This document shows, in pieces, positions 11,334-32,000 of a stretch of 32,000 nt of DNA. Each line of letters begins with the position of its first letter. Within the stretch, counting starts at the first letter, position 1. Made by a program: the position numbers and the translations under genes. The notes under the pieces are model-generated. The model worked only from the letters and a program-made list of their open reading frames with translations. It was not told the DNA's origin and ran no database searches. The stretch is taken from contig DAOOUC010000007.1 in assembly GCA_035390665.1 (NCBI GenBank), positions 1 to 32,000 of the forward strand. Direction: 5' to 3'. Source of the stretch: an archaeon. GTDB taxonomy: Archaea > Iainarchaeota > Iainarchaeia > Iainarchaeales > CSSED10-239.

Positions 11334-11336
11334 GTG

Positions 11337-12596: not shown

Positions 12597-12628
12597 TTTA
12601 ATCTCACCATTTTTTTATTTTTTAAATT

Positions 12629-13825
12629 TTACTCTTCGCGAAGTGCTTCAACAGGTTCCTGACTTGAAGCAATATAAGCTGGAATCATTCCTGATATTAT
12701 TCCAATCAAAAAAGAAAACCCAAGTGCTAATATAACAATATTAAAACTAATTAATATGTTTATTGTTATTCCAACTTGAGCGGCCACTAATTTAACAAGA
12801 CTTGCTAAACCAAATCCAAGTAATACCCCTATTGTTCCTCCAATTAAACCAATAATTCCAGATTCTAATAAGAATATTAAAAGAATGTCTCTTTTCTTAG
12901 CACCAACTGCTTTTAATATTCCAATTTCTTTCTTTCTTTCAAATACAGAAGTGTACATGGAGTTTAATATTCCAATTCCTCCAACTAGAAGAGAAATACA
13001 AGCAATTCCAATAATAACAATACTAACCATTCCAAGAGTTTCTTCTCTGTTTTTTGCTTCTTGAATTGGGCTTGTTACAAATACATCTTCTGAACCTCTT
13101 TTTCTTTCAAGTCTATCTTTTATTTTTTCGGAAGTAACTTCTACATCTTTTCCTTCTTTGGTAATTGCATAAATTGCATCAAAGGTATCGTTCTGTGTAA
13201 TTTCTTTAAGATTATCATTAGAGATATAAATTGCACTATCTTTTCTTCCGTCTCCTGTTTTTTTAAGAACTCCTACAATTGTATATTCTGTGTCTGCAAT
13301 TTTAATTTTCTTTCCAAGATCTAGAATTTTTCCAAAAAGATCATCTTCTTTTTCTATATCATAAAAACTATAACCAACAACAATTTCTTTTGCTTTATCT
13401 GAAGATATATAACTTCCAGTTAATATTTCTTTATTTTCTTGTAGTAACATTTTTTCAAAATATTTTGGTTCATAAGAAGTATAAGAAAGCATTTGTGTTT
13501 TTTGATTATATTTAGTTTCAAGATATCCATTTAATGATCCAGTCGCATAATCAACATCTGTAATTTTTTCTATAGTTTTAATATCTTCATCTGTTAATCC
13601 AAGTAAACTTCGGCCACCACCAAAACTTTGGTATTTGGAAGTAATTGTTATCTTTTGAGAACCTAAATTATTAAATTCACTGGTTATTGCAGATTTAAGT
13701 CCTTCTGAAAGAGAAATCAAAGAAACAATTGCAACAACTCCAACAATAATTCCAGCTATAGTTAACCAATTTCTTAATTTTCTTCTTCTTAGGTTTCTTA
13801 GAACAAAACTTAGTATTCCAATCAT
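12629..13825 (-). CDS. ABC transporter permease, MacB/FtsX type (second paralogue)
   Basis: The architecture matches 10116-11333, and the FtsX module reads ERKKEIGILKAVGAKKRDI. Confidence 0.85.
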   Translation of the reverse strand: MIGILSFVLRNLRRRKLRNWLTIAGIIVGVVAIVSLISLSEGLKSAITSEFNNLGSQKITITSKYQSFGGGRSLLGLTDEDIKTIEKITDVDYATGSLNGYLETKYNQKTQMLSYTSYEPKYFEKMLLQENKEILTGSYISSDKAKEIVVGYSFYDIEKEDDLFGKILDLGKKIKIADTEYTIVGVLKKTGDGRKDSAIYISNDNLKEITQNDTFDAIYAITKEGKDVEVTSEKIKDRLERKRGSEDVFVTSPIQEAKNREETLGMVSIVIIGIACISLLVGGIGILNSMYTSVFERKKEIGILKAVGAKKRDILLIFLLESGIIGLIGGTIGVLLGFGLASLVKLVAAQVGITINILISFNIVILALGFSFLIGIISGMIPAYIASSQEPVEALREE

Positions 13826-13831
13826 TAATTA

Positions 13832-14536
13832 TCAATGGTTTAGTTTATCTTCAATTATTTTTCCATCTTTTAGATTTATGTTTCTTTTTGCAGCTTTTGC
13901 AACAGTCTTATCGTGTGTAATAATTATAACTGTTTTTCCTTTCTTGTTTAAATCTTTTAAAAGATCCATTATTTCTTCACTTGATTTGGAATCAAGAGCA
14001 CCGGTTGGTTCATCAGCGAGTATAATTTCGGGGTCATTAACTAAAGAACGTGCAATTGCTACTCTTTGTTGTTGTCCACCGGAAAGTTCAGTTGGTTTAT
14101 GATGTACTCTTTCTCCAAGACCAACTAGAGTTAATAATGCTTTACAATGTTTTTCTTGAAGTTCTATTGATTTATCTGTGTCTTGAAAAAGCATTGGAAG
14201 CATAACATTTTCTAGAGCAGTTAAAGTTGGTATAAGATTAAAATCTTGAAAAACAAAACCAATTTTTTGTCCTCTAATCTTTGCTAAATCGTCTTCTTCT
14301 AAATTAGAAACATCTGTTCCACCTAAAAGTACTTTTCCTTTACTTGGAAGATCTAAGGCTCCAATAATGTGCATCATTGTGGATTTTCCAGAACCGCTTG
14401 GGCCCATAATTGCAACGAATTCTCCAGTATTAATTCTTAAATCTACTCCATTTAAGGCATTAACACAAACAGAACCCATACAATAGATTTTGTAGATATC
14501 TTTAAGTTCCACAACAGCTTTATCTTTTATAGTCAT
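13832..14536 (-). CDS. ABC transporter ATP-binding protein (MacB/LolD family)
   Basis: It has Walker A GPSGSGKST, the signature LSGGQQQRVAIARSL and Walker B ILADEPTGALD. I start it at the internal Met (MTIKDKAVVELKDIYK, ATG at 14536). The 33-codon upstream extension in the ORF track is Phe/Cys-rich AT-driven junk. Confidence 0.9.
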   Translation of the reverse strand: MTIKDKAVVELKDIYKIYCMGSVCVNALNGVDLRINTGEFVAIMGPSGSGKSTMMHIIGALDLPSKGKVLLGGTDVSNLEEDDLAKIRGQKIGFVFQDFNLIPTLTALENVMLPMLFQDTDKSIELQEKHCKALLTLVGLGERVHHKPTELSGGQQQRVAIARSLVNDPEIILADEPTGALDSKSSEEIMDLLKDLNKKGKTVIIITHDKTVAKAAKRNINLKDGKIIEDKLNH

Positions 14537-14840
14537 GTTTAACTCACACAAATAGTTAGTAAATTTACTATATATTACATATATAGAAATATATTTAAAT
14601 AGAAAAAAACAGAAAAAACAAGTAAAAAACACCATTTCTTGGACAACTCGTCAACAAACACATTTATATATATTTTTAATCTAAAATATATTATATCTAT
14701 TTGAGACAATTATGTTTACCTAAGTTCTTAAATTTTGTTCTTTTGGGTATGCACAACAAAAGTTATTTTTTGTTGGCACAGAGAAATCACAAAGTGATTT
14801 GTCTTGTGAAGGAACTTTTCTTTCAAGAAAAGGGTCTCGT

Positions 14841-15256: not shown

Positions 15257-15630
15257 TGTTAAAAAATAAATTTATTTATTGGATACCAAGAATTTTATCA
15301 ATATTATTTATTCTCTTTTTAGCAATGTTTTCTTTAGATGTTATTACTCCAGAGGCAAGTTTTTTGGAGATTGTGGGCGGATTACTAATTCATAATATCC
15401 CTGTTTTTATTTTAACTGCAATTTTAATAATTTCTTGGAAATATGAAATTGTAGGTGCTATTGCTTTTATTTTGGGAGGATTATTATATCTTCTAAATGT
15501 TTTGATTACTATAATTAGGACACCACCATTTGAATGGTTTTATTTATCTTGGATTTTATTTATTTCAGGACCAGCATTCTTGATAGGAATATTATTTTTA
15601 ATTGGCTGGTTAAAAAAAAAGTCTAAGTAA
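15256..15630 (+). CDS. Hypothetical 4-TM membrane protein (124 aa)
   Basis: It has four clear hydrophobic helices and its start is coupled to the upstream ORF. No motif was recognised. Confidence 0.55.
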
Positions 15631-17320
15631 ATTCATTTTCTGAAGTATTATTCCCGTAAAAGCTATTAAGTTTATTACTCATACAACTCATAATTGTTAA
15701 GCAATCTGTATCTGAAATATATTTTGTGTCTTGATAATTAATGTTGATAATATTATATTCATTTAATGGATCAATATCGTTTGGATAATCAGGAACAGGA
15801 GTAATTGGTTGTGGCATATTTTCAATTCTTCGTTGTAAATTTTCTTGTCTAATTCTTTCATTTTCTTGTCTTTGTATTTCAGCTTGATTTTGTCTTTCTA
15901 ATTCTTGTTTAGCAATAGGAAGTAAATCGTTTATTTCTTTACCTGATTTAGAAATTAATTCTCCAGAATATCCATAAATTATTGAACATTCTAATTTAGC
16001 ATCTTCATCTTTTATCCATATTCTAAAATATCCATTATTCCCCCAGTGTTCTCCCCAATTATTTTTTAATATCCAGTATTCTTTATTTCTAATCTTATCT
16101 GTGCCCCATCCAACAATAGTAACACCGTGAGCAAGGGTTGGAGGGTCTTCGTCTGATATTTTAGACCAAATTCCAGATTCAAAATTATAAAGAGACGGAT
16201 AAAAATAAATAGATGTTGCTAGAGGAGATAATTTAAGTGCTTCTTTAATATTATTGATTGTTTGAGTTTTATTTATAGTTCTACAATCAGAATTATCAAT
16301 TCTAAAATGAGATTCTATAAAATACTTGGTATAGTTGTCATTTTTTCTAGGCAAATAAATTGAATTTTCAGTATCTGAATCAGAAGTATCTGGACAAAAA
16401 TTAGAGTTTATATTATTAATATTTAATCGGCCTTGACCAGTAATTAAAAGAGGGGTAATATTCATATTTGTTGTAGTTTTCTTAGTAGTTCTATTTAAAT
16501 TAACAATTTCACAAGAATCATATGCCAAATAATTTAGTTGATTTTCTAAAGGAACACCAAAAGGAACTTCTCCAGCAGCTAAACTTAATTGGGTTCTTGT
16601 TTGTAAATGTTCTGTGCCTGCAATTAATTTATTTTCTAAACCTAATTCTCCTTTTATTTTATTTTTTAAATAATTATTAAAATCACTATTTTGATTATAA
16701 GAGGCTAAAGATAAGAATTTAATGTAATAATCTAATCCAGCACCACGACAGCCAATGAAATTAGAATAGGATATAAGATATTGTTCAGATAAGTTTAATT
16801 TATTATTTTCTGAAAGATTATCTTTTCTATTTATGTATCCTTCTAAAGCTCCAAGAATTGCAAAAGTGTTACAAGAACCACAAGTTGTTTGATTTTTACC
16901 TAGCGTCATATATGTTGCCCAATTTATTTGGTCTTCAAATTCATAAATTGGAGCAGAAATGGTGGCATCGGTTAATAAGAATAATCCAGTATTCCTATTT
17001 TTTTCTTTTTTCATAGAATTTAAGTCATCATATTTGTAGTTTTCTGGAAAGAAATTATTTTTATTTTCGGTATTAAAAATAGGCGATGGATCAGGATTTG
17101 CATTTGAATAAGAATCAATTTCATCAATTCTTTGAGTGATTGGAATTTTCATAATTTCTTTAGAGTAATTTGTAGCAACCCAAGATGCATTTTGTTTTCT
17201 TAATTGTTCATTAATAATATCTGCTTGTGTTTTTTCTTTAGATATTGATAAAAATAACATTATAGAGATAATTATTATAGAAATAATAATTGCAATTATG
17301 GAGTTTAATTTTTTATTCAT
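15623..17320 (-). CDS. Membrane-anchored papain-like cysteine protease (peptidase family C1A-like) with a large insertion and a coiled-coil C-terminal extension
   Basis: An N-terminal TM anchor is present ([19 protein letters not shown]). The catalytic motifs are [21 protein letters not shown] (Gln144..Cys150, same spacing as papain Q19/C25), [11 protein letters not shown] (His) and [21 protein letters not shown] (Asn-Trp). The C-terminal region is Q/E/R-rich ([30 protein letters not shown]). A GGGGA Shine-Dalgarno-like element precedes the ATG. Confidence 0.8.
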
Positions 17321-18128: not shown

Positions 18129-18509
18129 TTAACATTCTCCTTCTTTTAATATTGGTACATTGTCTGCTGTACATGCGTTTCCATAAGTAACTCCATTAAC
18201 TCCACAAACAGGCATATATTCCATTGTACAAACCTTTCCTTCTGTTGGAGGATATTGCCCTTTAAAACATTCTTCTCTATAAAGCTTCCATTCTTCACAT
18301 TGAGATCCATCTTCAAATGTACAGATTCCATATTCTCCATGTTCTGAATTGACAATATTTAATGTACCTCCAAGATTTTTACAATAAACAGAAGCAGGGT
18401 TTGCAATTTCAGTTGTATTCTTTTCTGAAAAAATTAAAAATCCTGCAACAATTCCTGATACAAAAACAATTGCCATAATTATTCCTATTATTATTCTTTT
18501 ATTTATCAT
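18129..18509 (-). CDS. Membrane-anchored DUF333 (COG3042, 'putative hemolysin') domain fused to a Kazal-type serine protease inhibitor domain
   Basis: An N-terminal TM helix is followed by NPASVYCKNLGGTLNIVNSEHGEYGICTFEDGSQCEEWKLYREEC, the canonical DUF333 pattern. Next comes CTMEYMPVCGVNGVTYGNACTADNVPILKEGEC (Kazal C..Y.PVCG..G.TY.N.C..C). An AGGTGA Shine-Dalgarno sits 8 nt upstream. The ATG overlaps the upstream stop (ATGA at 18506-18509). Confidence 0.75.
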   Translation of the reverse strand: MINKRIIIGIIMAIVFVSGIVAGFLIFSEKNTTEIANPASVYCKNLGGTLNIVNSEHGEYGICTFEDGSQCEEWKLYREECFKGQYPPTEGKVCTMEYMPVCGVNGVTYGNACTADNVPILKEGEC

Positions 18510-19375
18510 TTATTTTCACCTTTTTTAAATACTTCTCCAAGGAAAAGTTTATTACTTACTCCGTATTTTTTTATATCAATATATCCTTTATCTATTAGTT
18601 TTTTAATATTTCTTGAAACTGTGCCTTTAGGCAAGAAACTTTTAGCAGTTATTATTTTTTGAGATTGTCCTTCGTTTTCAATAATTATCTTCATAATCTT
18701 TTGTTCATTCTCATTTAGTCCCAAAAGTAAATCTTTTCCTTTTTCTGTAGTTTTTATTTCTTTTTTAGTTTTTGGTTTCTTTTTAATTAATAGGTATGCC
18801 CCAACTAAAATAATTGGAATAATTAATAAATAATAATAATAATTATTAGATTCAACATTCTTTAAATCATAATTAATATTTATTTCTTTGATATCTTTAA
18901 AAGAAATAACAATTTGTCCATTGATTACTTGAACCGAAGAAGAGATGGGCGTTTCTTTTATTTCTGAATTTTTGGGTAGAGTTATTTTTAAGTTATTAGA
19001 TGTGTCTAAATATCTAGATTTATAATTTAGATTCCAAAGTCCATTATTTTTATTTGTGTAATAATCAGTAAGAGAGATGATTTCTATATTTAATGTTTCT
19101 GGTATGTTGCTTAGGTTAATTGTTAATAATTCAGTTGTGTATGAAAAATTAGAATATTTTTGATTATTAATCTTTACAACAACATCATAGCTTGGAACAA
19201 TTGGTAATTCTAATTTTTCTGAATTAATGTCTGTAATTATTAATTTTTCTGAAATTTTATAACTATCAAATTTATCTGCAAATATTTCTGTGTCTTGAGA
19301 TATAACATTGTATGCATAATTATAATTAATTATTGTAATAAAAACAAAAAATATTAATATTTGTTTCTTAATCAT
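18506..19375 (-). CDS. Membrane-tethered winged-helix (MarR/ArsR-like) transcription regulator with an extracytoplasmic N-terminal domain
   Basis: A signal/anchor (ILIFFVFITIINY) is followed by an outside domain of about 150 aa and a TM helix (YYYYLLIIPIILVGAYLLI + KKKPKTKK). The cytoplasmic wHTH reads LNENEQKIMKIIIENEGQSQKIITAKSFLPKGTVSRNIKKLIDKGYIDIKKYG. Confidence 0.65.
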   Translation of the reverse strand: MIKKQILIFFVFITIINYNYAYNVISQDTEIFADKFDSYKISEKLIITDINSEKLELPIVPSYDVVVKINNQKYSNFSYTTELLTINLSNIPETLNIEIISLTDYYTNKNNGLWNLNYKSRYLDTSNNLKITLPKNSEIKETPISSSVQVINGQIVISFKDIKEININYDLKNVESNNYYYYLLIIPIILVGAYLLIKKKPKTKKEIKTTEKGKDLLLGLNENEQKIMKIIIENEGQSQKIITAKSFLPKGTVSRNIKKLIDKGYIDIKKYGVSNKLFLGEVFKKGENK

Positions 19376-19452: not shown

Positions 19453-20451
19453 TTATTCTTTAATTTCTCTTATAGCAGATATTCTTTTTTGTATTATCTT
19501 TTCTCCGAAAGGAATAAACCCTAAGAATTTCTTTTTTTCTTTAACTTCAAAAACATATTCTGGATTTTCTGATTCTGTTTCTAAAATAATTTCTCCGATT
19601 ATCTTTTCAGAATCAATTTTGTTTTCTTGAAGTATTTGTGTTACAGGTATTATCTTTTTTGTAGAGTTATTGTTTGTTATATAAATTTCAGAATCCTTTA
19701 TTTCCATTTGAGATCTTGTTCTTAATTGTTCTTTTGGTTTTTCTGCAGTTGTTAATTCTTCTTTGTTTGGTTTAGAATTTTGTGCATTAGGGTTTGCTTG
19801 TATTTGATTTTGATTTCTGGCTCTTGCATTTTCTGCAACAATTCCAGAATTGTCAGAATCAATAATTAAATAATGTATGTTTCCAAGATTATTCCCTTGA
19901 ATTTCGGTTCCATCATTTAGTTTGATTGTGGCTTTAAATTTAAGCAATTTATCTATTCCACAAGAATTAATAAATCCAGTCATATTTTCTTGTGCAAATT
20001 CTTCTGTATCGTTTTCTTTTACATAACCAATCTTTCCATGAAATAAAGAATCTGTTGAGCTTTTGCTTAATTTTCTTGTAAAACAAGCTTGTTCTTGTCC
20101 GTCTGTAAAAATTTCAAGAACTACCAATTCTATTTCTGAAAGATTAATAGTTTTAGTATTAGCAATAGGCAATAATTCTAAATCTAAATAATAGCCTTCA
20201 TTTTTCTTTAAATGATAGGTATTAGTTTCAGAATTAAAATAAGCACTAGAATTACATCTTTCTTTATATGGCCCAGTATAATTTTGATCAAAACGCACAG
20301 GTACAACAATTTGTGCTCTGTCTATTGCACAAGGAATTTGAAGTTCATAACTCATAGCTTCTTGAGCATAAAGTTTAGGAACAACAGCAAGTGCAAAGAT
20401 TGTTAATGCAAATATTGCAACCACATAATTTATTATTTTTTTTTCATTCAT
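19453..20451 (-). CDS. Secreted hypothetical protein; the C-terminal about 70 aa is PepSY-like (tentative)
   Basis: It has a signal peptide (VVAIFALTIFALAVVPKLYAQE) and a strong Shine-Dalgarno (TAAGGAGGAAAAATATG). The low-complexity linker is NARARNQNQIQANPNAQNSKPNKEE. The C-terminal EYVFEVKEKKKFLGFIPFGEKIIQKRISA resembles the YEV..K.KLFGFIPv...V pattern of PepSY-type domains, which is weak evidence. Confidence 0.55.
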   Translation of the reverse strand: MNEKKIINYVVAIFALTIFALAVVPKLYAQEAMSYELQIPCAIDRAQIVVPVRFDQNYTGPYKERCNSSAYFNSETNTYHLKKNEGYYLDLELLPIANTKTINLSEIELVVLEIFTDGQEQACFTRKLSKSSTDSLFHGKIGYVKENDTEEFAQENMTGFINSCGIDKLLKFKATIKLNDGTEIQGNNLGNIHYLIIDSDNSGIVAENARARNQNQIQANPNAQNSKPNKEELTTAEKPKEQLRTRSQMEIKDSEIYITNNNSTKKIIPVTQILQENKIDSEKIIGEIILETESENPEYVFEVKEKKKFLGFIPFGEKIIQKRISAIREIKE

Positions 20452-20813: not shown

Positions 20814-23800
20814 ATGAAATATACAAAAATACTATCTATAATTCTTATAATTTTAATATTGCCTTTTATCTTTGCAGAAGATGAAGGCAATTCTATTATT
20901 GTTCCTTTGGCAATAAATGGAACAGAAGGAGAATTAGATGTTTTTACAATACAAACAAACTATCCAGAAATAGAACTTGATGAATCTCAAGACCTAATTA
21001 CAAGTTTTTCTTCTTTTGATCAGAATTCATCATTTTCTTTAAATTCTCAAGTTAATTATAAATCTCTTAATATTCCTCATTATTTCTTAAAAGAAAATCA
21101 AAATACTAAAAAAAGAATATATCCATTTAACCAAGGAAGAACTTATGTAATAAATAATTCTTCGCAAGAAATTGCAAAAGACAAAACCTTAGAGCTTAAA
21201 TTAAATTTGTCTAATACCACACAAAAAGTTTATTTAATTATTGACCAAGCGCAATCAAATCCAATACCAGCTATGACTCAATTTGTAAATATTAGTTCTT
21301 CAACAATTGAGATTAACACCATTCCAAGATATCTAAAAATAAATAAAAGTTCAATTGTAAATGGCAAACTACTTTTAAATCTTAAAGCTAATATTCCTAA
21401 TTTTTCTTTACAAATAATAGAATTGGATAATAATCAAAAAGTTAGTGGAGTTTATAGTACAAATATTTTACAATTAGATTATGATTCTTTTAACAAATAT
21501 ACTTTATTTCAGATAAATAGAAACCTTATTGAATTTTATTGTCCTTATTGTCATCTTAAAGACTATGGGATAAATGAAAATGGTTTTTCTTCTTGTGGCA
21601 AGTCTGTTTTTGAACAAGAGAAGAAATCAATAACGGAATATTTAAGTGCGAAAGAAAATGTTTGTCTTTTACCAGATGGTTCAAGGATCTCTGGTTTTAC
21701 AAATGAGTCCTTGGAATTATTTGGTTTGAATAGATTATATTTTGAATGGAATGATAATATTCCTTCTGATTTCTTTGATTATGGAGAATACTATGTAGAT
21801 CAAGATCAACTAAGAATTGCAGTTTCTAAAAAATTAGATGAGATAAGTAATAATAATTATGTTGAAATTGAAACTACAAAATACAAAAAAGGAAAAAACA
21901 CCTTAATTTCAAAAGTTGGAACAGATATAGAATATGACTTGTCTGAAGTTACAGAACTTTCAACAAACAGTTCAATAAACGAGTCATTGGATTTTTCTAT
22001 TGCAGTATTAAATTCAATTCCCGAAGAATATAAAAAATTAACAATAATTGATTTAACAAATAATGAACCATCTGTAAGTGTTTCTGAATTTGATAGAATA
22101 ATGCAAGAGATTTTAGTTTCAAATTATTATAAAGTAACAGACTATCACACACATTATCAAATAACTCTTGAGAAATATTTAAGTTCAATTAGTAATTTTA
22201 AAATATCAAGAGCAAATAACGATATTTATTCTAAACTTTTATATGGCCTAGAATATAAAACACAAGGTTATTCTAATGTTTATTTATCAGAAGGATTAAA
22301 TTATTTTATATATAATATTAAACCATTTGGAGAAGATATAGAAGCAATTCTAAATAATGAGCACACACAATTGTTTGGAAACTATTGGAAACTAAATCTT
22401 TTAGATAATAACCAAACCACACAACCAAAAACAGTTATTGTAAATCTTTCAGAGATTGTTCCTGAAAGAAAAGAAGCAAATATTAGTTTTAATGATCCAA
22501 CTACAGATTTATATGTTAATTATTATTCAGGAAATCAATATTTTTCTAATAATCCTTTATTTTTAATGCCACTAAATGTATTAAGTTACAATCGTGGAAA
22601 CTTTTTTGAGAATACTACGTCTGTTACTTCAAAGCAACCAGATATCATAAACAATTATAATAATCTCCAAGAAGGCAAAATTGTTTCTATAGATACAACA
22701 AGTTCTGATTTTGTAATTAATTTAACAAAACCAATAATTATTACTAAAGATACTGGAGAAGAAATTTTAGTAAAGTATTATAATGGTAGAGAATATGTTA
22801 ATTATTCTAATAATTTAATAAAAGTAAATAATTCAAGAGAAGACTTTCCAACTAAAGAAACAATTGTTATTTATCCGCCAAAGTCAGAATTTGTAAATTT
22901 TCCATTAATTGTTGAATCATCAACTCCTTTAATTTTTAATAAAGAAGTTATTGAAAATAAAGAGCAAGAAAAATATGTATATAGATTAAATTCAGAAACT
23001 CAGAATTTAAGCTTTTCTGAATTAATAAACAATATTTCAAATAATCAAACTTGTTTTTCAGTTATAGATAATAGTTTTTCTTTATGGATAAATGTTGATC
23101 AAGAATTAGATGTTACAAAATCTTATAGTTATCAAGAATTTGCAAGTGCTTTACAATCAGAAGAAAATAGTCCTTCTGAAAGTCTTGCAACAACTTTAAA
23201 TCAAAACCCCGAAGTAAATACAACCTTTGCAGTATATACAATTGATGAATCTCAAAATCTTTACAAACAAGTACAAGCAGTTAATTCTTATATTCAAACA
23301 GAAACAGAGACAAGGAATTTAAAAATTTTAGAAAGTTATAATGAAGTATATCAAAAAGTATTAGAAAGTGAGCCTGCATTAAAAAAAGACTTTATAAATT
23401 TATTAAATTGTAATGAAACTTTAATTTGTAGGATTTCAAAAACAAGATTTACTCCAGAGGGTTCCTTCTTTGAGAGATTTAAAAATGTGTGCATAGACAA
23501 TACTCCTACAGAATGTGTAAGTTTCTGGTCAAATCCAAAAGTAAGTTATTGTTCTGCATTTATTAGAAATTTTAATAATTATTATTTTGGATATAGATTT
23601 GATTCTGCAAATGCTTGGGATTTAGCTAAACAACAAAATAATAAAAGTATTTGGAAGGCAACAACCGGCTCTCTTTCGGAAAGTAGTTATGATTATTTAA
23701 TTCCTGGTTCTGTTCTTGGAATTAAGCACAATAATACAAGTTATTGGGATAAAGAATATAGTCATGTTGTTGTTTATTTAGGGAAAATGGGTTCTAGTCA

Positions 23801-25787
23801 TTATATTATTCATTCTTGGTTAAATACCTTAAAAATTGAAAAACTAGATGTTTTCTTAAAAACAACAGCCAGAGGAAAAAATGCATATGGGTATTATGAA
23901 GATGGGCAAATAAAAGAAGTAATGATTTCAAATAACCTTTATCAGAAATTAAGAACAAAAGCTAGAATTGAAGGAATTTCTCTTGGTTCTGTTGATTCTT
24001 CTATTTATCAAGGCATTGTTTCTAATTACATATTAGATTCATTTAACAATTTTGAAATGGTTTCAACAACTCAGAGAAGCACACTAAATCAAAATATGTA
24101 TCAGGAATTAGAGGTTGTTTATAATAGAATTTTAAATAAGGACTTTAGTATTTATTATAAAACAAACTATTCTAATAATTCAACACCAGAAGTAAATCAA
24201 AACATAAGATTAACACCAGGAGAGCCAATGATAATAATTCTTGGCAAATATAAAAAAGTATTTTTAGTTAATAAAGAGAATGGAATAACTAATATTATTT
24301 CTGAATATCCAATAGCAACAGGAGTTAATGGTTTTGGTTGTGTGAACGATAGTTTAAAAACACCAATTGGGCTATTTAAAATTGTACAAAAAGTTGGACA
24401 AAATTGTAGTCCTTTACAAGTTATAGGTGCTAATGGTTGTCAATATCAAAACGGAAACCCCGTACTTGCAAGTTATAATTCAGGAACAGCTAAAGTTGTA
24501 ACCAGAAAACTTGTTCTTGATGGTCTTGAAAAAGAAAATATTGGTGTTGGTTGTGACACAGGTAATAGAAACACAATATATAGAGGGATATTTATACACG
24601 GAACAAATTATGAAAACTCAATGGGACAACAAAGATCTCATGGTTGTATTAGAATGTTAAATAATGATGTTATTACTTTGTTTAACAATGTGCAAAACGG
24701 AACGTATGTTTATATTTATAATTCTGAAACAAGTTATTCAAGTCTTTTAGATTTAGAAAACAAATTAACAAATTCAGGAAACAACTTAGAATTCACATTA
24801 ACTAGTGCAAGAAAACCATCAAATTCTAGAATTACAGCAACGAAGACAATGCAAGATGTTGACAATTATATTGATGAAAGAATAAATACATTTAGAATGT
24901 TAGATAATACAACAGGAGTAAGTCTAAGTTATGGTAGAGAATGTAACACAACAACCTTGAAGTTTCCTTGTTTTTTAAAAGAAGCCTTAGATGTAGAATA
25001 TGATGCACATGTAATAAATCCACAATCTTCTGAGTTTAATTATATTGTTTTTAGAGTAACTAAAGCTTTTGGTTATACTTTAGAAGAAACAGCACAATTT
25101 TGGGGAAGTCTTTCTCAAGAGAGTGGAACTTCAACAAACATAAGTGGATCACAATCACAATATGGTAATTCTCTTACAGGAAAACCAGCATATGGTATTG
25201 CACAAATAGAAAAAGCACCATGGTCACAATATAATGCAAATAGATACACATTTGACGAAATGGTTCAAGATTTTAATTCTGTAGATTTATCTAGTATTAT
25301 TGAAAGAGACCCTAGAATTGGAACCGTTACAGGCAGTAATAATAAAATAGACAGTAGAACAGAAATAATTGCTTTATTAGATTTAATTTGGACAAATAAA
25401 AGTAAATATGCATCTGTTGTTTTTTCTGCAGGATTAAAAAGATATATTGGTAGAAAGATAATTACAACTTCTCAAATTAATTACAATTCTGGAACAATAA
25501 GAGAGCCGTTTTGGCATGCTCATAGAACGACATACGATCATTTAAATTCAATTAATTTTAATTTTGCTGTAATTTATAAATATAAATATACAGGAACTCA
25601 AAGAATGTATGATGGTATAAAAAGATATTCTGGATTAGATGGCGGAGAAGACACAATTAAAACAATTGCATTAAAGCTTGCAAATTATCTTGCTTTTAAA
25701 AAAGAATATTATATGTATAAATATGGAATAATAAATGGAAATCATTCTGATTTATTGGCAAGTATGATAAATGCAGGGATAATTTAA
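20814..25787 (+). CDS. Giant (1657 aa) secreted/surface protein with NlpC/P60-like cysteine peptidase, YkuD L,D-transpeptidase and SLT-like lytic transglycosylase modules
   Basis: It has an N-terminal signal/anchor (ILSIILIILILPFIFA) and about 880 aa of N/S/T-rich sequence of unknown fold. YCSAFIRNF...SHVVVYLGKMGSSHYIIHSW (Cys913/His984) looks like NlpC/P60. IFIHGTNYENSMGQQRSHGCIRMLNNDV (Cys1278) is the YkuD motif. SQESG..AYGIAQI..INYNSGT (Glu1436) follows the E-S / G-L-M-Q / Y-N-x-G order of SLT domains. Confidence 0.85.
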   Translation: MKYTKILSIILIILILPFIFAEDEGNSIIVPLAINGTEGELDVFTIQTNYPEIELDESQDLITSFSSFDQNSSFSLNSQVNYKSLNIPHYFLKENQNTKKRIYPFNQGRTYVINNSSQEIAKDKTLELKLNLSNTTQKVYLIIDQAQSNPIPAMTQFVNISSSTIEINTIPRYLKINKSSIVNGKLLLNLKANIPNFSLQIIELDNNQKVSGVYSTNILQLDYDSFNKYTLFQINRNLIEFYCPYCHLKDYGINENGFSSCGKSVFEQEKKSITEYLSAKENVCLLPDGSRISGFTNESLELFGLNRLYFEWNDNIPSDFFDYGEYYVDQDQLRIAVSKKLDEISNNNYVEIETTKYKKGKNTLISKVGTDIEYDLSEVTELSTNSSINESLDFSIAVLNSIPEEYKKLTIIDLTNNEPSVSVSEFDRIMQEILVSNYYKVTDYHTHYQITLEKYLSSISNFKISRANNDIYSKLLYGLEYKTQGYSNVYLSEGLNYFIYNIKPFGEDIEAILNNEHTQLFGNYWKLNLLDNNQTTQPKTVIVNLSEIVPERKEANISFNDPTTDLYVNYYSGNQYFSNNPLFLMPLNVLSYNRGNFFENTTSVTSKQPDIINNYNNLQEGKIVSIDTTSSDFVINLTKPIIITKDTGEEILVKYYNGREYVNYSNNLIKVNNSREDFPTKETIVIYPPKSEFVNFPLIVESSTPLIFNKEVIENKEQEKYVYRLNSETQNLSFSELINNISNNQTCFSVIDNSFSLWINVDQELDVTKSYSYQEFASALQSEENSPSESLATTLNQNPEVNTTFAVYTIDESQNLYKQVQAVNSYIQTETETRNLKILESYNEVYQKVLESEPALKKDFINLLNCNETLICRISKTRFTPEGSFFERFKNVCIDNTPTECVSFWSNPKVSYCSAFIRNFNNYYFGYRFDSANAWDLAKQQNNKSIWKATTGSLSESSYDYLIPGSVLGIKHNNTSYWDKEYSHVVVYLGKMGSSHYIIHSWLNTLKIEKLDVFLKTTARGKNAYGYYEDGQIKEVMISNNLYQKLRTKARIEGISLGSVDSSIYQGIVSNYILDSFNNFEMVSTTQRSTLNQNMYQELEVVYNRILNKDFSIYYKTNYSNNSTPEVNQNIRLTPGEPMIIILGKYKKVFLVNKENGITNIISEYPIATGVNGFGCVNDSLKTPIGLFKIVQKVGQNCSPLQVIGANGCQYQNGNPVLASYNSGTAKVVTRKLVLDGLEKENIGVGCDTGNRNTIYRGIFIHGTNYENSMGQQRSHGCIRMLNNDVITLFNNVQNGTYVYIYNSETSYSSLLDLENKLTNSGNNLEFTLTSARKPSNSRITATKTMQDVDNYIDERINTFRMLDNTTGVSLSYGRECNTTTLKFPCFLKEALDVEYDAHVINPQSSEFNYIVFRVTKAFGYTLEETAQFWGSLSQESGTSTNISGSQSQYGNSLTGKPAYGIAQIEKAPWSQYNANRYTFDEMVQDFNSVDLSSIIERDPRIGTVTGSNNKIDSRTEIIALLDLIWTNKSKYASVVFSAGLKRYIGRKIITTSQINYNSGTIREPFWHAHRTTYDHLNSINFNFAVIYKYKYTGTQRMYDGIKRYSGLDGGEDTIKTIALKLANYLAFKKEYYMYKYGIINGNHSDLLASMINAGII

Positions 25788-25788
25788 T

Positions 25789-26448
25789 TTATTCTAATAA
25801 TTTATCTTTTATTTTCTTTATTTTTGTTTTAGATTTAATTATGTAATGTCTTTTCGCATGTTCCACTAAAAGAGCATGATATTCTTGGTATATCTTGAAA
25901 TCTTTTGGAAGGTTATCCATAAATAGTTTTTGTATTTCTTCGTATTTTGCATTTTTTTTAATAATTTTAAGATTTAATAATATTCTTATAGTATATGCAT
26001 CAACAACAAAGATTGGTTCTCTATGTGCATATAAAAGAATGGAATCAGCTGTTTCTTTTCCAATTCCTTTAACTGAAAGAAGTTCGTGTCTTGTAGGCAT
26101 TCTGTCTTTCAAAGATAAATAAAATTTAGAAATATCAACAAGTCTTTCATATTTTTGATTATAATAGCCAACAGATTTAATTGCGTGTTTGATAATTTCT
26201 TCATCTTTTTCTATTATTGCTTTAGGATTCAGTAAATCGTTTTTCTTAAGATTATAAATTGCTTTTTCAACATTTTTCCAAGAAGTACTCTGAGTTAATA
26301 TTGCCCCAACATATACTTCAAATATTTGAGAATGTGTTTTAATTAAATAATATTTCCCTGGATGATAACCAATATCAGATAATGGCCACCAACCCTGTGG
26401 TCCATAGTTTGTAAGTAAAACATCATATATTTTTTGTATAGTATTCAT
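25789..26448 (-). CDS. Endonuclease III-related HhH-GPD DNA glycosylase (COG2231-like, no Fe-S cluster motif)
   Basis: The HhH-GPD motif is LLSVKGIGKETADSILLYAHREPIFVVDAYTIRIL, and there is no C-terminal Cys cluster. I start it at MNTIQKIYD (ATG at 26448) rather than at the 11-codon upstream extension. Its stop lies 1 nt from the giant gene's stop (convergent). Confidence 0.8.
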   Translation of the reverse strand: MNTIQKIYDVLLTNYGPQGWWPLSDIGYHPGKYYLIKTHSQIFEVYVGAILTQSTSWKNVEKAIYNLKKNDLLNPKAIIEKDEEIIKHAIKSVGYYNQKYERLVDISKFYLSLKDRMPTRHELLSVKGIGKETADSILLYAHREPIFVVDAYTIRILLNLKIIKKNAKYEEIQKLFMDNLPKDFKIYQEYHALLVEHAKRHYIIKSKTKIKKIKDKLLE

Positions 26449-26510
26449 AGCTTTTTCACAAATAATAATATAACAATACAATTATTAAATGTTTTTGTGT
26501 TATTGTTTTT

Positions 26511-27059
26511 ATGCTTAGAAGAATTTTAATATTTTTGTGTTTAGTTTTATTTTTAGGAACTTTATTTTATGTTCTTATCGAAAATAATAACAAAACAGAA
26601 ACAGACAAAACCTATTATTTCGGTTACGGAAGTAATATGGATATTGATCTTTTAAGAAAAAGGATTGATAATAATTCTATAGTTCCAGTAAGTTATGCTA
26701 AACTTGAAAACTATCGTCTAATCTTTCCAAGAGGAGTAGGTTCTGTTATTCCTGATGAAACTACAGATGTCTATGGTTGTCTTTTTCTTTTAACAAAAGA
26801 AGAAATAGCAAAACTGGATATTATTGAAGGATATAGAGAAGATAGAAATAAATCATTAAACAGTTACAATAGAGAATGGATAGATGTTTTGTCTCCAAAA
26901 GGTAAAAAAGTATCTGCAGAAATCTATATTCAGACAAACAATTCTGATGTAAATGCAAAACCAAGTAATAGTTACAAGCAAACACTTGTAAAAGGTGCAA
27001 GCGATTGTTCTCTTCCTGATTTTTATCAAGAACAATTAAAGCAAATTGAAGTTAGATAA
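26511..27059 (+). CDS. Gamma-glutamylcyclotransferase-like (AIG2/GGCT fold) protein with N-terminal TM/signal segment
   Basis: YYFGYGSNM matches the Y-G-S-N-(M/L) signature, and a later catalytic-type Glu lies in IIEGYRE. The N-terminal hydrophobic segment is ILIFLCLVLFLGTLFYVLI. Confidence 0.65.
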   Translation: MLRRILIFLCLVLFLGTLFYVLIENNNKTETDKTYYFGYGSNMDIDLLRKRIDNNSIVPVSYAKLENYRLIFPRGVGSVIPDETTDVYGCLFLLTKEEIAKLDIIEGYREDRNKSLNSYNREWIDVLSPKGKKVSAEIYIQTNNSDVNAKPSNSYKQTLVKGASDCSLPDFYQEQLKQIEVR

Positions 27060-27198: not shown

Positions 27199-28008
27199 AT
27201 GAATAAAGTAAATGTATTAGGAAATGATATTTCATATTATACAAAACAGGAAAACGACTATATTTCTTTAACAGACATGGTTAAAAATTTAAATAATGGT
27301 TTAGTATTAATAGAAAAATGGTTAAGAAATAAAAACACTATTGAATTTATAGGGATTTGGGAAGAAATGAACAACCCTGAATTTAATTCCCCCGAATTCG
27401 GGGGAATTAAAAATGAAGCAGGAACAAATAGATTTGCATTGTCTGTAAGTCAATGGATAATTAGAACAAATGCTATTGGAATTAAAGCAAGTGCAGGAAG
27501 GTATGGCGGAACCTTCGCACACAAAGATATTGCTTTTGAGTTTGCTTCATGGATATCTCCTAAATTTAAATTATATCTTATTAAAGAATTTCAAAGATTA
27601 AAAATAGATGAAAGTCAAAGGTTAAAACTTGATTGGGACATTAAAAGAAATCTTGCTAAAATTAATTATCATATACACACAGACGCTATAAAGAACAATT
27701 TGATTCCTGAAAAGATATCTAAAACAAAAGAATATTTAATTTATGCAACAGAAGCAGATATCTTAAATCTTGCTCTTTTCGGATTAACTGCAAAAGAATG
27801 GAAAAATAATAATCCTAAATTAGAAGGGAATATTAGAGATTATGCAGATATTTCTCAATTAGTTTGTCTTTCAAATCTTGAAAACTTAAATGCGTTGTTC
27901 ATTAAAGAAGGAATGGACAAATTAGAGAGATTGAAAAAATTAAACATTATAGCAATTGAGCAAATGACTATTTTAACTAATCAGCAAGTAATTAAAAAAT
28001 TAAAATAA
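27199..28008 (+). CDS. KilA-N domain DNA-binding protein (phage/mobile-element-associated family)
   Basis: The ISLTDM..WLRNKNTIEFIGIWEEMNNPEFN..EF..IKNEAGTNRFALSVSQWI..TNAIGI..GRYGGTFAHKDIAFEFASWISPKFKLYLIKEFQRLK pattern is characteristic of the widespread about-270-aa KilA-N proteins. Confidence 0.75.
   Translation: MNKVNVLGNDISYYTKQENDYISLTDMVKNLNNGLVLIEKWLRNKNTIEFIGIWEEMNNPEFNSPEFGGIKNEAGTNRFALSVSQWIIRTNAIGIKASAGRYGGTFAHKDIAFEFASWISPKFKLYLIKEFQRLKIDESQRLKLDWDIKRNLAKINYHIHTDAIKNNLIPEKISKTKEYLIYATEADILNLALFGLTAKEWKNNNPKLEGNIRDYADISQLVCLSNLENLNALFIKEGMDKLERLKKLNIIAIEQMTILTNQQVIKKLK
27382..27411. repeat. Perfect 30-bp palindrome with G5/C5 core centred on GAATTC, inside the KilA-N CDS
   Basis: TTTAATTCCCCCGAATTCGGGGGAATTAAA equals its own reverse complement, checked base by base from 27382 to 27411. 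It encodes ..FNSPEFGGIK.. Confidence 0.9.
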
Positions 28009-28012
28009 GAAG

Positions 28013-28085
28013 TGGTCCTGCCCGGATTTGGACCGGGGATCTCTGCCATGTGAAGGCAACATCATAACCGCTAGACCACAGGACC
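28013..28085 (-). tRNA. tRNA-Val (anticodon CAC)
   Basis: The reverse complement GGTCCTGTGGTCTAGCGGTTATGATGTTGCCTTCACATGGCAGAGATCCCCGGTCCAAATCCGGGCAGGACCA folds as a 73-nt cloverleaf. The anticodon loop is TTCACAT and the discriminator is A. No CCA is encoded. The T-loop reads TCCAAAT, so position 55 is C rather than the usual U. Confidence 0.88.
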
Positions 28086-28652
28086 TTATTGTAATTTATA
28101 GGTTTTTTCTATAACACATCTTCTTGTTGGTTTTTTAGCTGTAGAATATTTCATAATTGTAATATTATCAAAATATGAATCAAAGTATTTTTCTTTTCCT
28201 TTTAAGAATTTCATAATTTTGGGATATAGCTTTTCATTACATTCTTCAGTAATAGTTGTGTGCAAATGTATTCCATTGTCTTCAATATTTTTGTGCCAAG
28301 TTAGCCATTTTAGTTTTTTTAATTCTTTGTGTAATTCTAAAATTATATTATTTATTTTTTGCGATTGACTTCCTTTTACAAAAACCACTCTTTTATGAAA
28401 ATTATCAAATCCACCAACTTTTATTTTTTGTTTAGTGTGTGTTTTTGAAAATTTAGAAAGAGTTTCTTTTAATTTCTCTAATTGTTTTGTATTTGCTTTA
28501 AATTTGTATTTTAAAGTAAAGTGTGCATAATTGTTTGCTTTCTTAGTGTGCATAAGACCAAATTCATTAGCGATTGCGCATACTAAATCTCTTCTATAGT
28601 TATCTATTTCTTTATTATGCAAAAAAAACAAACAATATTCCATATTATTCAT
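28086..28652 (-). CDS. 2H phosphoesterase superfamily protein (LigT / 2'-5' RNA ligase-like cyclic phosphodiesterase)
   Basis: This about-188-aa protein has two H-x-T/S-x motifs at the expected spacing (AHFTLKY and HLHTTITE). Its stop codon directly abuts the 5' end of tRNA-Val, and it begins 3 nt after the aspS stop. Confidence 0.6.
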   Translation of the reverse strand: MNNMEYCLFFLHNKEIDNYRRDLVCAIANEFGLMHTKKANNYAHFTLKYKFKANTKQLEKLKETLSKFSKTHTKQKIKVGGFDNFHKRVVFVKGSQSQKINNIILELHKELKKLKWLTWHKNIEDNGIHLHTTITEECNEKLYPKIMKFLKGKEKYFDSYFDNITIMKYSTAKKPTRRCVIEKTYKLQ

Positions 28653-29951: not shown

Positions 29952-31874
29952 TTATTTATTTCTAGATATCCTTTTCTCTTTGATTTCTTCATGTAGTTCT
30001 TTTATGAACGCTTCAATTTTTTGTTCTCCAAGTATTTCATTGTCTCTTGTTCTTATGTTTACTGTTTGATTCTTTGCTTCGCTGTCTCCGACTACAAGGA
30101 TGTAATTGATCTTTGAAAGCTCTGCATTTCTTATCTTCTTGTTCATTGTTAAAGCATTATCGTCTATCTCAACACGAAGACCTGCTTCTTTTAATTTCTT
30201 AGAAACAAAAGATGCATAGTCATTATGTCTGTCAGCGATTGGAAGCACAATTACTTGGACAGGAGAGAGCCACAATGGAAACTTTCCTTCAAATTCTTCA
30301 ACTAAGATTCCTAAAAATCTCTCAACACTACCATAGATTGCTCTGTGTATCATTACTGGTCTCATTTTTTCATTATTTGGTCCTTCATAAGTTAAATTAA
30401 ACTTCTCAGGCATTTGGAAATCAAGTTGTATTGTTCCACATTGCCAGTCTCTTCCAATTGCATCTTTTAAATGGAAATCAATCTTTGGTCCGTAGAAAGC
30501 TCCATCTCCCGGATTAAGCTTGTATTCTTTACCAAGAGTTTCAAGAACTTCTTTAAGAGTGTCTTCAGCTAAATCCCAAAGTGCTGGATCTCCCATTGCT
30601 CCTTCTGGTTTAGTTGAAAGTTCCATGTGATAAGAAAAACCAAAGACCTTGTAAACTTCGTCAAGAAGATTAATTAAATCAATAATCTCGTCTTTCATTT
30701 GATCTCTTGTACAAAATACATGAGCATCGTCTTGAGTAAAGCATCTTACTCTAAACATTCCTGAAAGTGCTCCTGAAAGTTCATGTCTATGAACTAATCC
30801 AAATTCTCCTGCTCTTATTGGTAAGTCTCTATAAGAGTATTGATGTGCTTTATAGACTAAAAGATTACCAGGACAGTTCATTGGTTTAACTGCAAAGTCC
30901 TGATCATCTATTTTTGTAAAATACATGTTGTCTTTATAGTGATCCCAATGTCCTGATTGTAACCATAATGATTTGTTTAGAATCATTGGTGTTTTGTTAA
31001 TCTCATAATTTCTTTCATAAAGTTTTTCTGTTAAAAACTCAACAAGTTTATTCCATATAATTGTTCCTTTTGTGTGAAAGAAAGGCATACCTGGTGCTTC
31101 TTCTTGGAAACTGAAAAGATCTAATTCTCTTCCAATCTTTCTATGGTCTCTTTTAGCTGCTTCTTCTAATCTAGTTAAGTATTCTTTTAGTTCTGTTGCT
31201 GACTGGTAAGATACACCATAGATTCTTTGTAATTGTTTATTCTTAGCATCTCCTCTCCAGTAGGCTCCTGATGCCTTTAATATTTTGAATGCTTTTATTT
31301 TTCCACTTGATGGGATGTGTGGTCCTCTACAAAGATCAATAAATTCTCCAAGCTTGTAGTAGGATAATTTCTCGCCTTTATCTTTAAGTTCATTTATCAT
31401 TTCTGTTTTGTAAGGTTGGTTCTTGAAAAGCTCTAAAGCTTTGTTAAAATCAACTTCATACCTTTCAAACTTAATATCTTCTTTAATAATTTTATTTACT
31501 TCTTCTTCTATTTTTTGTAATTCTTCTTCAGTAAAAGCCCTATTGATATCTACATCATAGTAGAATCCTTCATCAATTGCTGGCCCAATAGCAAATTTAA
31601 CTTCAGGGAATAATCTTCTAATTGCAAGAGCCATGATATGTGAAGAACTATGCCAAAAGATTTCCTTACCTTCTTTATCTTTATAAGTTATTACTAAAAA
31701 ATCTGTGTCTGTGGTAATAGGTGTTTCTAAGTCTATCAACTTCTGGTTTATTTTAGCAGCCATAGCTACTCTGAGTAGTCCTTCTCCAATATTTTCAAGG
31801 ATAACTTCCTTTGCTTTTTTTCCTGATTCTATTTCTTTAATATTACCATCAGGAAACTTTACATTTATTTTCAT
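29952..31874 (-). CDS. thrS: Threonyl-tRNA synthetase (TGS + editing/SAD + class II core + anticodon-binding domain)
   Basis: It contains the TGS-like N-terminus MKINVKFPDGNIKE, then HSSSHIMA, HRHELSGALSGMFRVRCFTQDDAHVF and RPVMIHRAIYGSVERF. The start is placed at the ATG at 31874, which has GGAGG 8 nt upstream. The in-frame ATG at 31889 overlaps that Shine-Dalgarno and is less likely. Confidence 0.95.
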   Translation of the reverse strand: MKINVKFPDGNIKEIESGKKAKEVILENIGEGLLRVAMAAKINQKLIDLETPITTDTDFLVITYKDKEGKEIFWHSSSHIMALAIRRLFPEVKFAIGPAIDEGFYYDVDINRAFTEEELQKIEEEVNKIIKEDIKFERYEVDFNKALELFKNQPYKTEMINELKDKGEKLSYYKLGEFIDLCRGPHIPSSGKIKAFKILKASGAYWRGDAKNKQLQRIYGVSYQSATELKEYLTRLEEAAKRDHRKIGRELDLFSFQEEAPGMPFFHTKGTIIWNKLVEFLTEKLYERNYEINKTPMILNKSLWLQSGHWDHYKDNMYFTKIDDQDFAVKPMNCPGNLLVYKAHQYSYRDLPIRAGEFGLVHRHELSGALSGMFRVRCFTQDDAHVFCTRDQMKDEIIDLINLLDEVYKVFGFSYHMELSTKPEGAMGDPALWDLAEDTLKEVLETLGKEYKLNPGDGAFYGPKIDFHLKDAIGRDWQCGTIQLDFQMPEKFNLTYEGPNNEKMRPVMIHRAIYGSVERFLGILVEEFEGKFPLWLSPVQVIVLPIADRHNDYASFVSKKLKEAGLRVEIDDNALTMNKKIRNAELSKINYILVVGDSEAKNQTVNIRTRDNEILGEQKIEAFIKELHEEIKEKRISRNK

Positions 31875-32000
31875 TTCTGATTCCTCCATTTTGTTGACAC
31901 CTAAATTTTCCTATTACCACATAGTTAATTTTAGGTAAGGTCTATAATATATTATATAAAACAGAAATAAATATAAATAAACAAGAAAAAGAGAAAAAGT

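Follow-up and report, generated by a model that had tools for sequence, protein, structure and literature searches.

What use might an archaeon have for a very large secreted protein assembled from modules that resemble peptidoglycan enzymes? The question is raised by a gene within a 32,000-nucleotide stretch of archaeal DNA (contig DAOOUC010000007.1 of assembly GCA_035390665.1, positions 1 to 32,000; hereafter "the window"), whose product is a protein of 1657 amino acids (aa), here called the giant protein. An earlier note, made from the DNA alone, had read it as a fusion of NlpC/P60-like, YkuD and SLT-like enzymes behind a long N-terminal region, and had proposed that it acts on the wall of a bacterial partner. 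Our analysis makes this role the most reasonable reading of the YkuD, glycan-cleaving-type and papain-like modules that the protein appears to hold, and we think it on balance probable that the giant protein is an exported multi-enzyme protein acting on bacterial peptidoglycan and not on the archaeon's own envelope. Both the substrate and the biological role proposed below are read from sequence.

The giant protein and its modules

The open reading frame (ORF) lies exactly where the earlier note had placed it (Table 1), and the peptides and residue numbers quoted there (Cys913, His984, Cys1278, Glu1436 and the CPYC cluster) are all correct. Searching 5.8 billion proteins we found 16 full-length relatives with 43-95% identity, and a sequence identical to the giant protein is present on independent contigs from two JGI samples (3300009838 and 3300025706) as well as in an NCBI metagenome-assembled genome (MAG). 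Since full-length relatives and independent identical copies both exist, the giant ORF is a real gene, neither a chance reading frame nor an assembly chimera. A Kyte-Doolittle scan detected one hydrophobic segment in the entire protein, at aa 1-25 and of the Sec-type signal or anchor kind, and the bulk of the protein would therefore be extracellular; as the earlier note had supposed, it appears to be secreted rather than anchored. Standard hmmscan searches (Pfam, NCBIfam and PHROGs) with the giant protein and all of its relatives returned YkuD as the one match, and a whole-protein profile run against PDB sequences likewise matched YkuD alone.

The YkuD domain is firmly confirmed as genuine, and the assignment of Cys1278 to its active site holds. 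Over aa 1161-1301 the domain reaches 63 bits with Pfam YkuD (PF03734; cutoff 23.4), and this model matches 17/17 members of the family (here and below, the query plus its 16 full-length relatives). His1262 and Arg1280 are present in 17/17 and Cys1278 in 16/17, and the catalytic motif aligns with Bacillus subtilis YkuD and other solved YkuD and L,D-transpeptidase (LDT) structures. The canonical His...Ser-x-Gly-Cys-x-Arg arrangement is shared with the YkuD family at large (B. subtilis YkuD, Escherichia coli LdtA-E, the amidase DpaA and Acinetobacter ElsL), whereas the location of the domain inside a 1657-aa archaeal secreted protein, without a LysM or PG_binding domain, sets it apart. The best NCBIfam model, covering the whole domain, is that of the L,D-carboxypeptidase ElsL (85.6 bits, cutoff 270). 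With a score far beneath all of the NCBIfam equivalog cutoffs, the module is assigned to none of the transpeptidase, carboxypeptidase and amidase reactions.

The C-terminal module is, with moderate homology support, a divergent lysozyme-superfamily domain. An exhaustive HMMER search with a profile of the query's variant yielded 22 proteins, mostly large (487-1419 aa) and otherwise without Pfam domains, and the expanded alignment of 23 sequences reaches down to ~23% identity. Its invariant positions are Glu1424, Glu1436, Ser1437, Gly1461, Gln1464, one Tyr and nothing else, with a Trp following Gly1461..Gln1464 in the motif (G-[ILVM]-[AG]-Q-[IV]...W). When the expanded profile was compared with PDB sequences, the best 60 of 261 matches (E<=10) were all C-type lysozymes (E 0.013-0.05), placing E-S on Glu35-Ser36 and 'YGIAQI..W' on 'D52-YGI[LF]QIN..W'; the unexpanded alignment had produced spurious JAK2 matches and nothing else. 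An hhalign comparison with hen egg-white lysozyme (HEWL) gave P=9.4e-5 (probability 59%), with Gly1461..Gln1464 aligned on G54..Q57. Sub-threshold Pfam matches to the same segment all belong to the lysozyme clan, namely Phage_lysozyme2 (3/10, best 3.6e-5), Transglycosylas, SLT_4 (1/10 relatives, E=0.017) and C-type lysozyme. In Pfam this clan also takes in Lys, SLT and Glucosaminidase. The hhalign comparisons with E. coli Slt70 (P=0.22) and with goose egg-white lysozyme (GEWL; P=0.052) were not significant, both being in register with 'ES ... GLMQ'.

How the module relates to known enzymes can be stated motif by motif. Its Glu-Ser, of catalytic type, on a helix and followed after ~25 residues by G..Q...W, aligns with Glu35-Ser36 and G54-I-L-Q57-I...W63 of HEWL and thus with the C-type lysozymes of glycoside hydrolase (GH) family 22, but unlike these it has no equivalent of Asp52 that is conserved in the 23-sequence alignment. 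Nor is any second carboxylate conserved, and its chemistry would therefore resemble that of the one-carboxylate GH23 or lytic transglycosylase type. The module also aligns on 'ES...GLMQ' of the GH23 enzymes Slt70 and GEWL, SLT motif III (AYNxG) is not recognisable in it, and in contrast to both GH families it carries a long insert and ~100 extra C-terminal residues and passes no Pfam threshold. Of the three motifs on which the earlier note had based an SLT module, E-S and G-x-x-Q stand, since they are invariant to ~23% identity and fall on lysozyme motifs, whereas INYNSGT varies even among close relatives in both the family and the expanded alignment. The module is thus not demonstrably of the SLT family, a reading that was rejected because SLT profiles miss it and motif III lacks conservation; an invariant downstream Tyr in 'A-x-x-Y-x-Y' is an unproven candidate counterpart of that motif. 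From this pattern the module is probably a muramidase or a lytic transglycosylase.

A further indication comes from the family alignment, which displays two alternative C-termini. Ten sequences including the query read '...AQESGTS...AYGIAQIE...', and six carry a different domain with the motif 'F-K-x-E-K-S-M-Y-N ... N-N-P-T-G-I-K'. All six of the latter match Pfam Glucosaminidase (GH73), with a best E of 1.8e-6 that lies below the gathering score. Because hhalign detected no relationship between the two variants, the swap is here regarded as replacement by an analogous or very distantly related module, and because the position alternates with a GH73-like module in 6/16 relatives we take it to hold a glycan-cleaving function. 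More widely, every carrier of the lysozyme-like module whose source is named stems from a MAG labelled 'archaeon' or 'Candidatus ainarchaeum sp.', and tblastn of the module against phage genomes detected no similarity. Many of the ~20 remote relatives (P0022-P0041) contain a Cys-rich motif region (e.g. 'ESGC...C..C'), and the metagenomic protein P0024 joins the lysozyme-like domain to a bona fide NLPC_P60 domain (31 bits, cutoff 23). This domain family, encountered here chiefly in proteins from archaeal MAGs and unseen by standard annotation, appears to be new and merits a profile of its own.

For the region between the N-terminal part and the YkuD domain a papain-like Cys-His peptidase identity is plausible. 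An AlphaFold2 (AF2) model has a mean predicted local distance difference test score (pLDDT) of 66, rising to 70-89 in the core. In it a helix bearing Cys913 precedes a beta-sheet, one strand of which begins at His984 while the following one contains His996 and His1000; this predicted arrangement is papain-like. The informative top Foldseek matches in the PDB were papain-like without exception, most of them being peptidoglycan peptidases. The phage 812 baseplate was the top match, and the others were the CHAP endolysin Ly7917, DVU_0896 (a gamma-D-Glu-L-diamino-acid endopeptidase), Tae2 (a type VI amidase) and the C39 domain of PCAT1. CHAP-fold domains have been described in the phage 812 baseplate (PMC13433997).

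Comparisons by hhalign with NlpC/P60 proteins of E. coli placed 'YC913SAF' on the catalytic 'DCSGF' of MepS (P=0.11; this alignment and the next are statistically insecure) and, against five NlpC/P60 domains, 'H984VVVYLG....YIIH1000S' on 'HVGIYIG..QFVHA' with its two catalytic His (P=0.018), the module's 'HVVVYLG...IIHS' resembling 'HVGIYIG...FVHA'. The predicted succession of a Cys on a helix, a His where a strand starts and a second His on the strand after it resembles that of NlpC/P60 and CHAP peptidases (MepS/Spr, Ly7917, Tae2 and DVU_0896), but the Cys-to-His spacing is ~71 in the module and 51 in MepS (alignment numbering). All 17 sequences retain His996 and His1000, 16 retain His984 and 15 retain Cys913. 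The homologue search with this module gave no relatives beyond its own archaeal family, its profile matched nothing among PDB sequences, and tblastn against phage genomes returned a single non-significant match (E=0.9). What survives of the NlpC/P60 module claimed by the earlier note is thus a conserved Cys913 and His984 weakly aligned on the catalytic columns; the family profile match is absent.

The N-terminal region resembles nothing in Pfam, PHROG or PDB searches with the giant protein, nor in Pfam searches with its relatives, in keeping with the earlier note, which had recognised nothing there, and no internal repeats were found in it. It is nonetheless strongly conserved: the mean identity to the query over aa 200-500 is 70-76%, no lower than in the catalytic modules, and FDYGEYYV and YFIYNIK, both located here, are the two most conserved peptides of the whole protein. 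The CPYC..C cluster that had been pointed out is present and conserved, comprising C243 and C246 plus C261 and C284, of which three are invariant and one is kept in 90% or more of the sequences. The cluster might serve disulfide formation or metal binding. A richness in N-x-S/T sequons had also been claimed, but where composition (10.7% Asn) by itself predicts 16.6 +/- 3.6 sequons the count is 24, a weak effect that mostly reflects a composition rich in Asn, Ser and Thr. A glycosylated stalk was rejected on account of this marginal enrichment and the strong conservation, the latter also arguing against the mere stalk once suggested, and we consider that the region probably serves targeting or binding. 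Five longer homologues (P0006, P0009, P0010, P0012 and P0013; 1752-1947 aa) have an extra segment of ~264 aa right after the signal peptide (after query residue 17), with no Pfam match in it.

Proposed function and competing explanations

If the modules act as their relatives do, the conserved N-terminal region would provide targeting or binding, and the papain-like peptidase would cut stem-peptide or amidase bonds. Cys1278 of the YkuD domain would be joined through a thioester to the L-centre of residue three of the stem, the domain acting as an L,D-carboxy/endopeptidase (with D-Ala release or 3-3 cross-link opening) or as a transpeptidase. Glu1436, as the single catalytic glutamate of the lysozyme-like module, would cleave the N-acetylmuramic acid-N-acetylglucosamine (MurNAc-GlcNAc) backbone by a GH23-like, one-carboxylate mechanism. 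Jointly the three modules would breach or take apart the wall of host or prey bacteria or of dead ones, and this would serve attachment, host access, or the scavenging of amino acids and amino sugars. Murein is the proposed substrate because glycan- and peptide-cleaving modules pair recurrently in the giant protein and its archaeal relatives, and the GH73 swap points the same way.

Several results weigh against a protein with three active enzymes. Cys1278 is replaced by Asn in one relative, Cys913 by Ser in two and His984 by Pro in one. Neither NLPC_P60 nor any other Pfam model matches the papain-like module in the 17 family sequences at E<=0.1, and no NCBIfam model does so; its Foldseek E-values are all at least 0.07 (the best, 0.07, being non-significant) and its hhalign P-values span 0.018-0.11. 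The C-terminal module lies below every curated profile threshold, with no threshold match to SLT models of Pfam and NCBIfam in the giant protein or the 16 relatives, and its AF2 model (pLDDT 47, mostly helical, catalytic lobe <40) is unreliable and gave noise in Foldseek. The earlier note had named the failure of at least two modules in profile searches as a ground for giving up its reading: in standard hmmscan two do fail, and by this rule the reading would formally fall, but the more sensitive profile and fold evidence rescues the lysozyme-like module well and the papain-like module weakly. The missed thresholds, the weak fold and hhalign support and the poor C-terminal model could accordingly be read as signs that YkuD is the sole enzyme, the other two regions being non-catalytic or unrelated folds of a large adhesin or surface protein, and catalytically dead CHAP and NlpC/P60 binding domains are known, e.g. 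the weld 'clip' domain of phage 812 (PMC13433997). We nevertheless hold this unlikely, given that the residues left invariant over wide divergence are of catalytic type (E-S and G..Q to ~23% identity; Cys/His/His), that the module exchanged for the C-terminal one is GH73-like and keeps the Glu-containing motif F-K-x-E-K-S, and that the lysozyme alignment is significant (P=9e-5).

Quite improbable, in our judgement, is an action on the archaeon's own envelope, with the YkuD and papain-like modules serving to cross-link or trim an S-layer glycoprotein or a surface polymer that contains peptide, and the lysozyme-like module remodelling the archaeon's glycan. The chromosomal context is conserved, contains housekeeping genes and has no obvious mobile or 'weapon' island, glycosyltransferases are encoded within the same window, and Pfam and PDB searches recognised no bacterial-wall-binding domain in the conserved N-terminal region, all of which would suit such a role. 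However, to our knowledge no murein-type wall is known from these archaea, and characterised members of all three module superfamilies and of GH73 mostly act on murein. Publications have moreover interpreted such enzymes as aimed at bacteria (PMC8204110, PMC9723730), and a survey of archaea yielded little evidence, if any, that orthologues of enzymes for the cross-linking or recycling of murein occur in them (PMC10117817). That the contig is instead mis-binned bacterial DNA, for example from the Candidate Phyla Radiation (CPR), and encodes an ordinary wall-remodelling enzyme is hardly credible. The window is very AT-rich (G+C ~27%) as in CPR genomes, and holds a bacterial-type DisA diadenylate cyclase, which at 334 bits exceeds its NCBIfam cutoff, a bacterial-type threonyl-tRNA synthetase (ThrRS) with 723 bits for the general thrS model versus 219 for the archaeal-type model, and a MacB/FtsX-type ABC transporter cluster of two permeases and an ATPase. 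Bacterial-type systems are, however, documented for Woese- and Pacearchaeota (PMC8204110), the aspartyl-tRNA synthetase (AspRS) in the window is of the archaeal-type non-discriminating class, and depositors all label these MAGs archaeal, the 6/6 family loci from species-representative genomes being titled 'archaeon'. The gene order of the window also matches that of two related loci (L003 and L005): a divergently transcribed gene for a 332-aa secreted protein, a gene for a 289-aa membrane protein with a winged helix-turn-helix (wHTH), the giant gene, an HhH-GPD glycosylase, GGACT, AspRS and ThrRS. Just past ThrRS both loci bear a full-length archaeal signal recognition particle (SRP) RNA (125 and 122 bits; gathering score 96.5), and because of this shared order with carriers of archaeal SRP RNA the host is archaeal, as the earlier note had assumed. 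It is probably a small-genome, DPANN-type archaeon, a placement finer than that of the source labels, which say 'archaeon'.

We also considered a bolder idea, a long shot, in which the YkuD domain is not degradative and would serve as a covalent 'stapler' of the archaeon to its bacterial host. E. coli LdtA-C, which attach Lpp to murein, provide the model. Once the papain-like and lysozyme-like modules had opened the sacculus, a tetrapeptide stem of the host would be bound to Cys1278 as an acyl-enzyme and then passed to an amine on the giant protein or on another archaeal surface protein, with the N-terminal region of ~840 aa as acceptor or spacer. If true, this would amount to a covalent cross-domain junction that anchors an episymbiotic archaeon to a bacterial host.

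Relation to published proteins

The idea at the centre of the earlier note, a secreted archaeal protein acting on the wall of bacteria, is already in the literature, since Castelle et al. (2021; PMC8204110) proposed that large extracellular murein-lytic proteins of Pace- and Woesearchaeota bind or degrade bacterial walls, and Vigneron et al. (2022; PMC9723730), writing on GH23 proteins, repeated and extended the bacterial-wall idea (likewise PMC10936187 and PMC11537232). Like those published proteins (PMC8204110, PMC9723730) the giant protein is very large and extracellular, comes from a small-genome archaeon and has a domain of the peptidoglycan glycan-cleaving type. Unlike them it misses the SLT and GH23 profiles, its glycan-cleaving module representing a separate, unannotated lysozyme-like family, and its YkuD and papain-like modules find no mention in these two papers, with fam00969, the protein cluster of PMC8204110, compared by description. 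An L,D-transpeptidase annotation of the protein is also public already (HOW29673.1 is labelled 'L,D-transpeptidase family protein [archaeon]'). What does remain of the claimed novelty is the specific domain combination: our literature search retrieved no paper mentioning YkuD together with DPANN, and both the architecture of papain-like plus YkuD plus lysozyme-like or GH73 modules and the C-terminal swap between the last two appear to be new. Parallels in kind are multi-domain hydrolases of phages and bacteria (CHAP plus glucosaminidase endolysins; phi29 gp13 with lysozyme and M23), which similarly unite glycan- and peptide-cutting activities on one polypeptide; the giant protein differs in being archaeal, in having YkuD mid-protein and in its large N-terminal region without known fold.

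DPANN archaea with known partners mostly live on other archaea, and the proposed action on bacterial peptidoglycan bears on whether some of them live on or prey on bacteria. A conserved secreted protein active on stem peptides and glycan would be concrete, testable evidence for archaeon-bacterium contact or for necromass scavenging. Two of the three modules go unseen in standard annotation, one of them being the lysozyme-like family with its ~20 remote relatives, and surveys of peptidoglycan degradation potential in DPANN archaea that build on CAZy or Pfam may therefore undercount this potential. The modules are also a possible source of unusual cell-wall-active enzymes.

Gene neighbourhood

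The features of the giant protein and the genes discussed around it are collected in Table 1.

Table 1. Positions in the window of the giant gene, its features and its neighbours.
Feature	Position	Strand	Basis or remarks
Giant gene, complete ORF for a secreted multi-domain protein	20814..25787	+	1657 aa; HOW29673.1
N-terminal signal peptide or membrane anchor MKYTKILSIILIILILPFIFA	20814..20876	+	Kyte-Doolittle scan
N-terminal region, fold without known match	20877..23393	+	~840 aa, within the N-terminal 860 aa; profile, PDB and repeat searches
Conserved Cys cluster C243-x2-C246-x14-C261-x22-C284	21540..21665	+	Family alignment
Probable papain-like (CHAP/NlpC-P60-superfamily) Cys-His peptidase module, aa ~893-1045	23490..23948	+	AF2, Foldseek, hhalign; candidate triad Cys913/His984/His1000
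YkuD (L,D-transpeptidase-fold) catalytic domain, aa ~1135-1305	24216..24728	+	Pfam; His1262, Ser-His-Gly-Cys1278-Ile-Arg1280
Divergent lysozyme-superfamily module, aa ~1395-1657	24996..25784	+	Sub-threshold Pfam, expanded profile, hhalign
DisA diadenylate cyclase, bacterial-type	1187-2335	+	NCBIfam
MacB/FtsX-type ABC transporter cluster	10116-14635	-	
Protein without known family	11337-12596		419 aa
Papain-family (Peptidase_C1) protein	15623-17320	-	565 aa
Protein with DUF333 and Kazal-type inhibitor matches	18129-18509	-	126 aa; precomputed matches
Membrane wHTH protein	18506-19375	-	289 aa
Secreted protein without known domain	19453-20451	-	332 aa
HhH-GPD glycosylase	25789-26481		
GGACT/AIG2 (gamma-glutamyl cyclotransferase-like) protein	26511-27059	+	
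KilA-N domain protein	27199-28008	+	Pfam, PHROG
tRNA-Val	28012-28085	-	
2'-5' RNA ligase-like protein	28086-28652		188 aa
ThrRS	29952-31889	-	general thrS model

Farther from the giant gene, the 419-aa protein is encoded between the two permease genes of the MacB/FtsX cluster. On the other side, the gene with a KilA-N domain (87 bits in Pfam, and E=3e-58 to PHROG 2657, 'transcriptional regulator') stands between the GGACT gene and tRNA-Val, and in the syntenic locus L005 the tRNA follows GGACT directly; this has the look of a small insertion, of viral or mobile-element origin, beside a tRNA. The adjoining 2'-5' RNA ligase-like gene has no match in the other loci.

Closer to the giant gene, the GGACT protein has an N-terminal hydrophobic segment and is separated from it by the HhH-GPD glycosylase gene alone, a placement conserved in L003 and L005. 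Gamma-glutamyl bonds occur in murein stem peptides, and it is pure speculation that this protein processes released murein peptides. The genes for the 332-aa and 289-aa proteins are divergent from the giant gene and are kept beside it in five to six related loci each, with 45-82% identity. The 289-aa protein combines an N-terminal signal or transmembrane (TM) segment and a second TM segment with a C-terminal winged-helix (TrmB/MarR-like) domain, and is possibly a membrane-bound regulator; a functional link of the two to the giant gene is possible. Just upstream, and likewise syntenic in relatives, lie the genes for the Peptidase_C1 protein and for the 126-aa protein with the Kazal-type match, which would add secreted protease- and inhibitor-type content to the neighbourhood of the giant gene.

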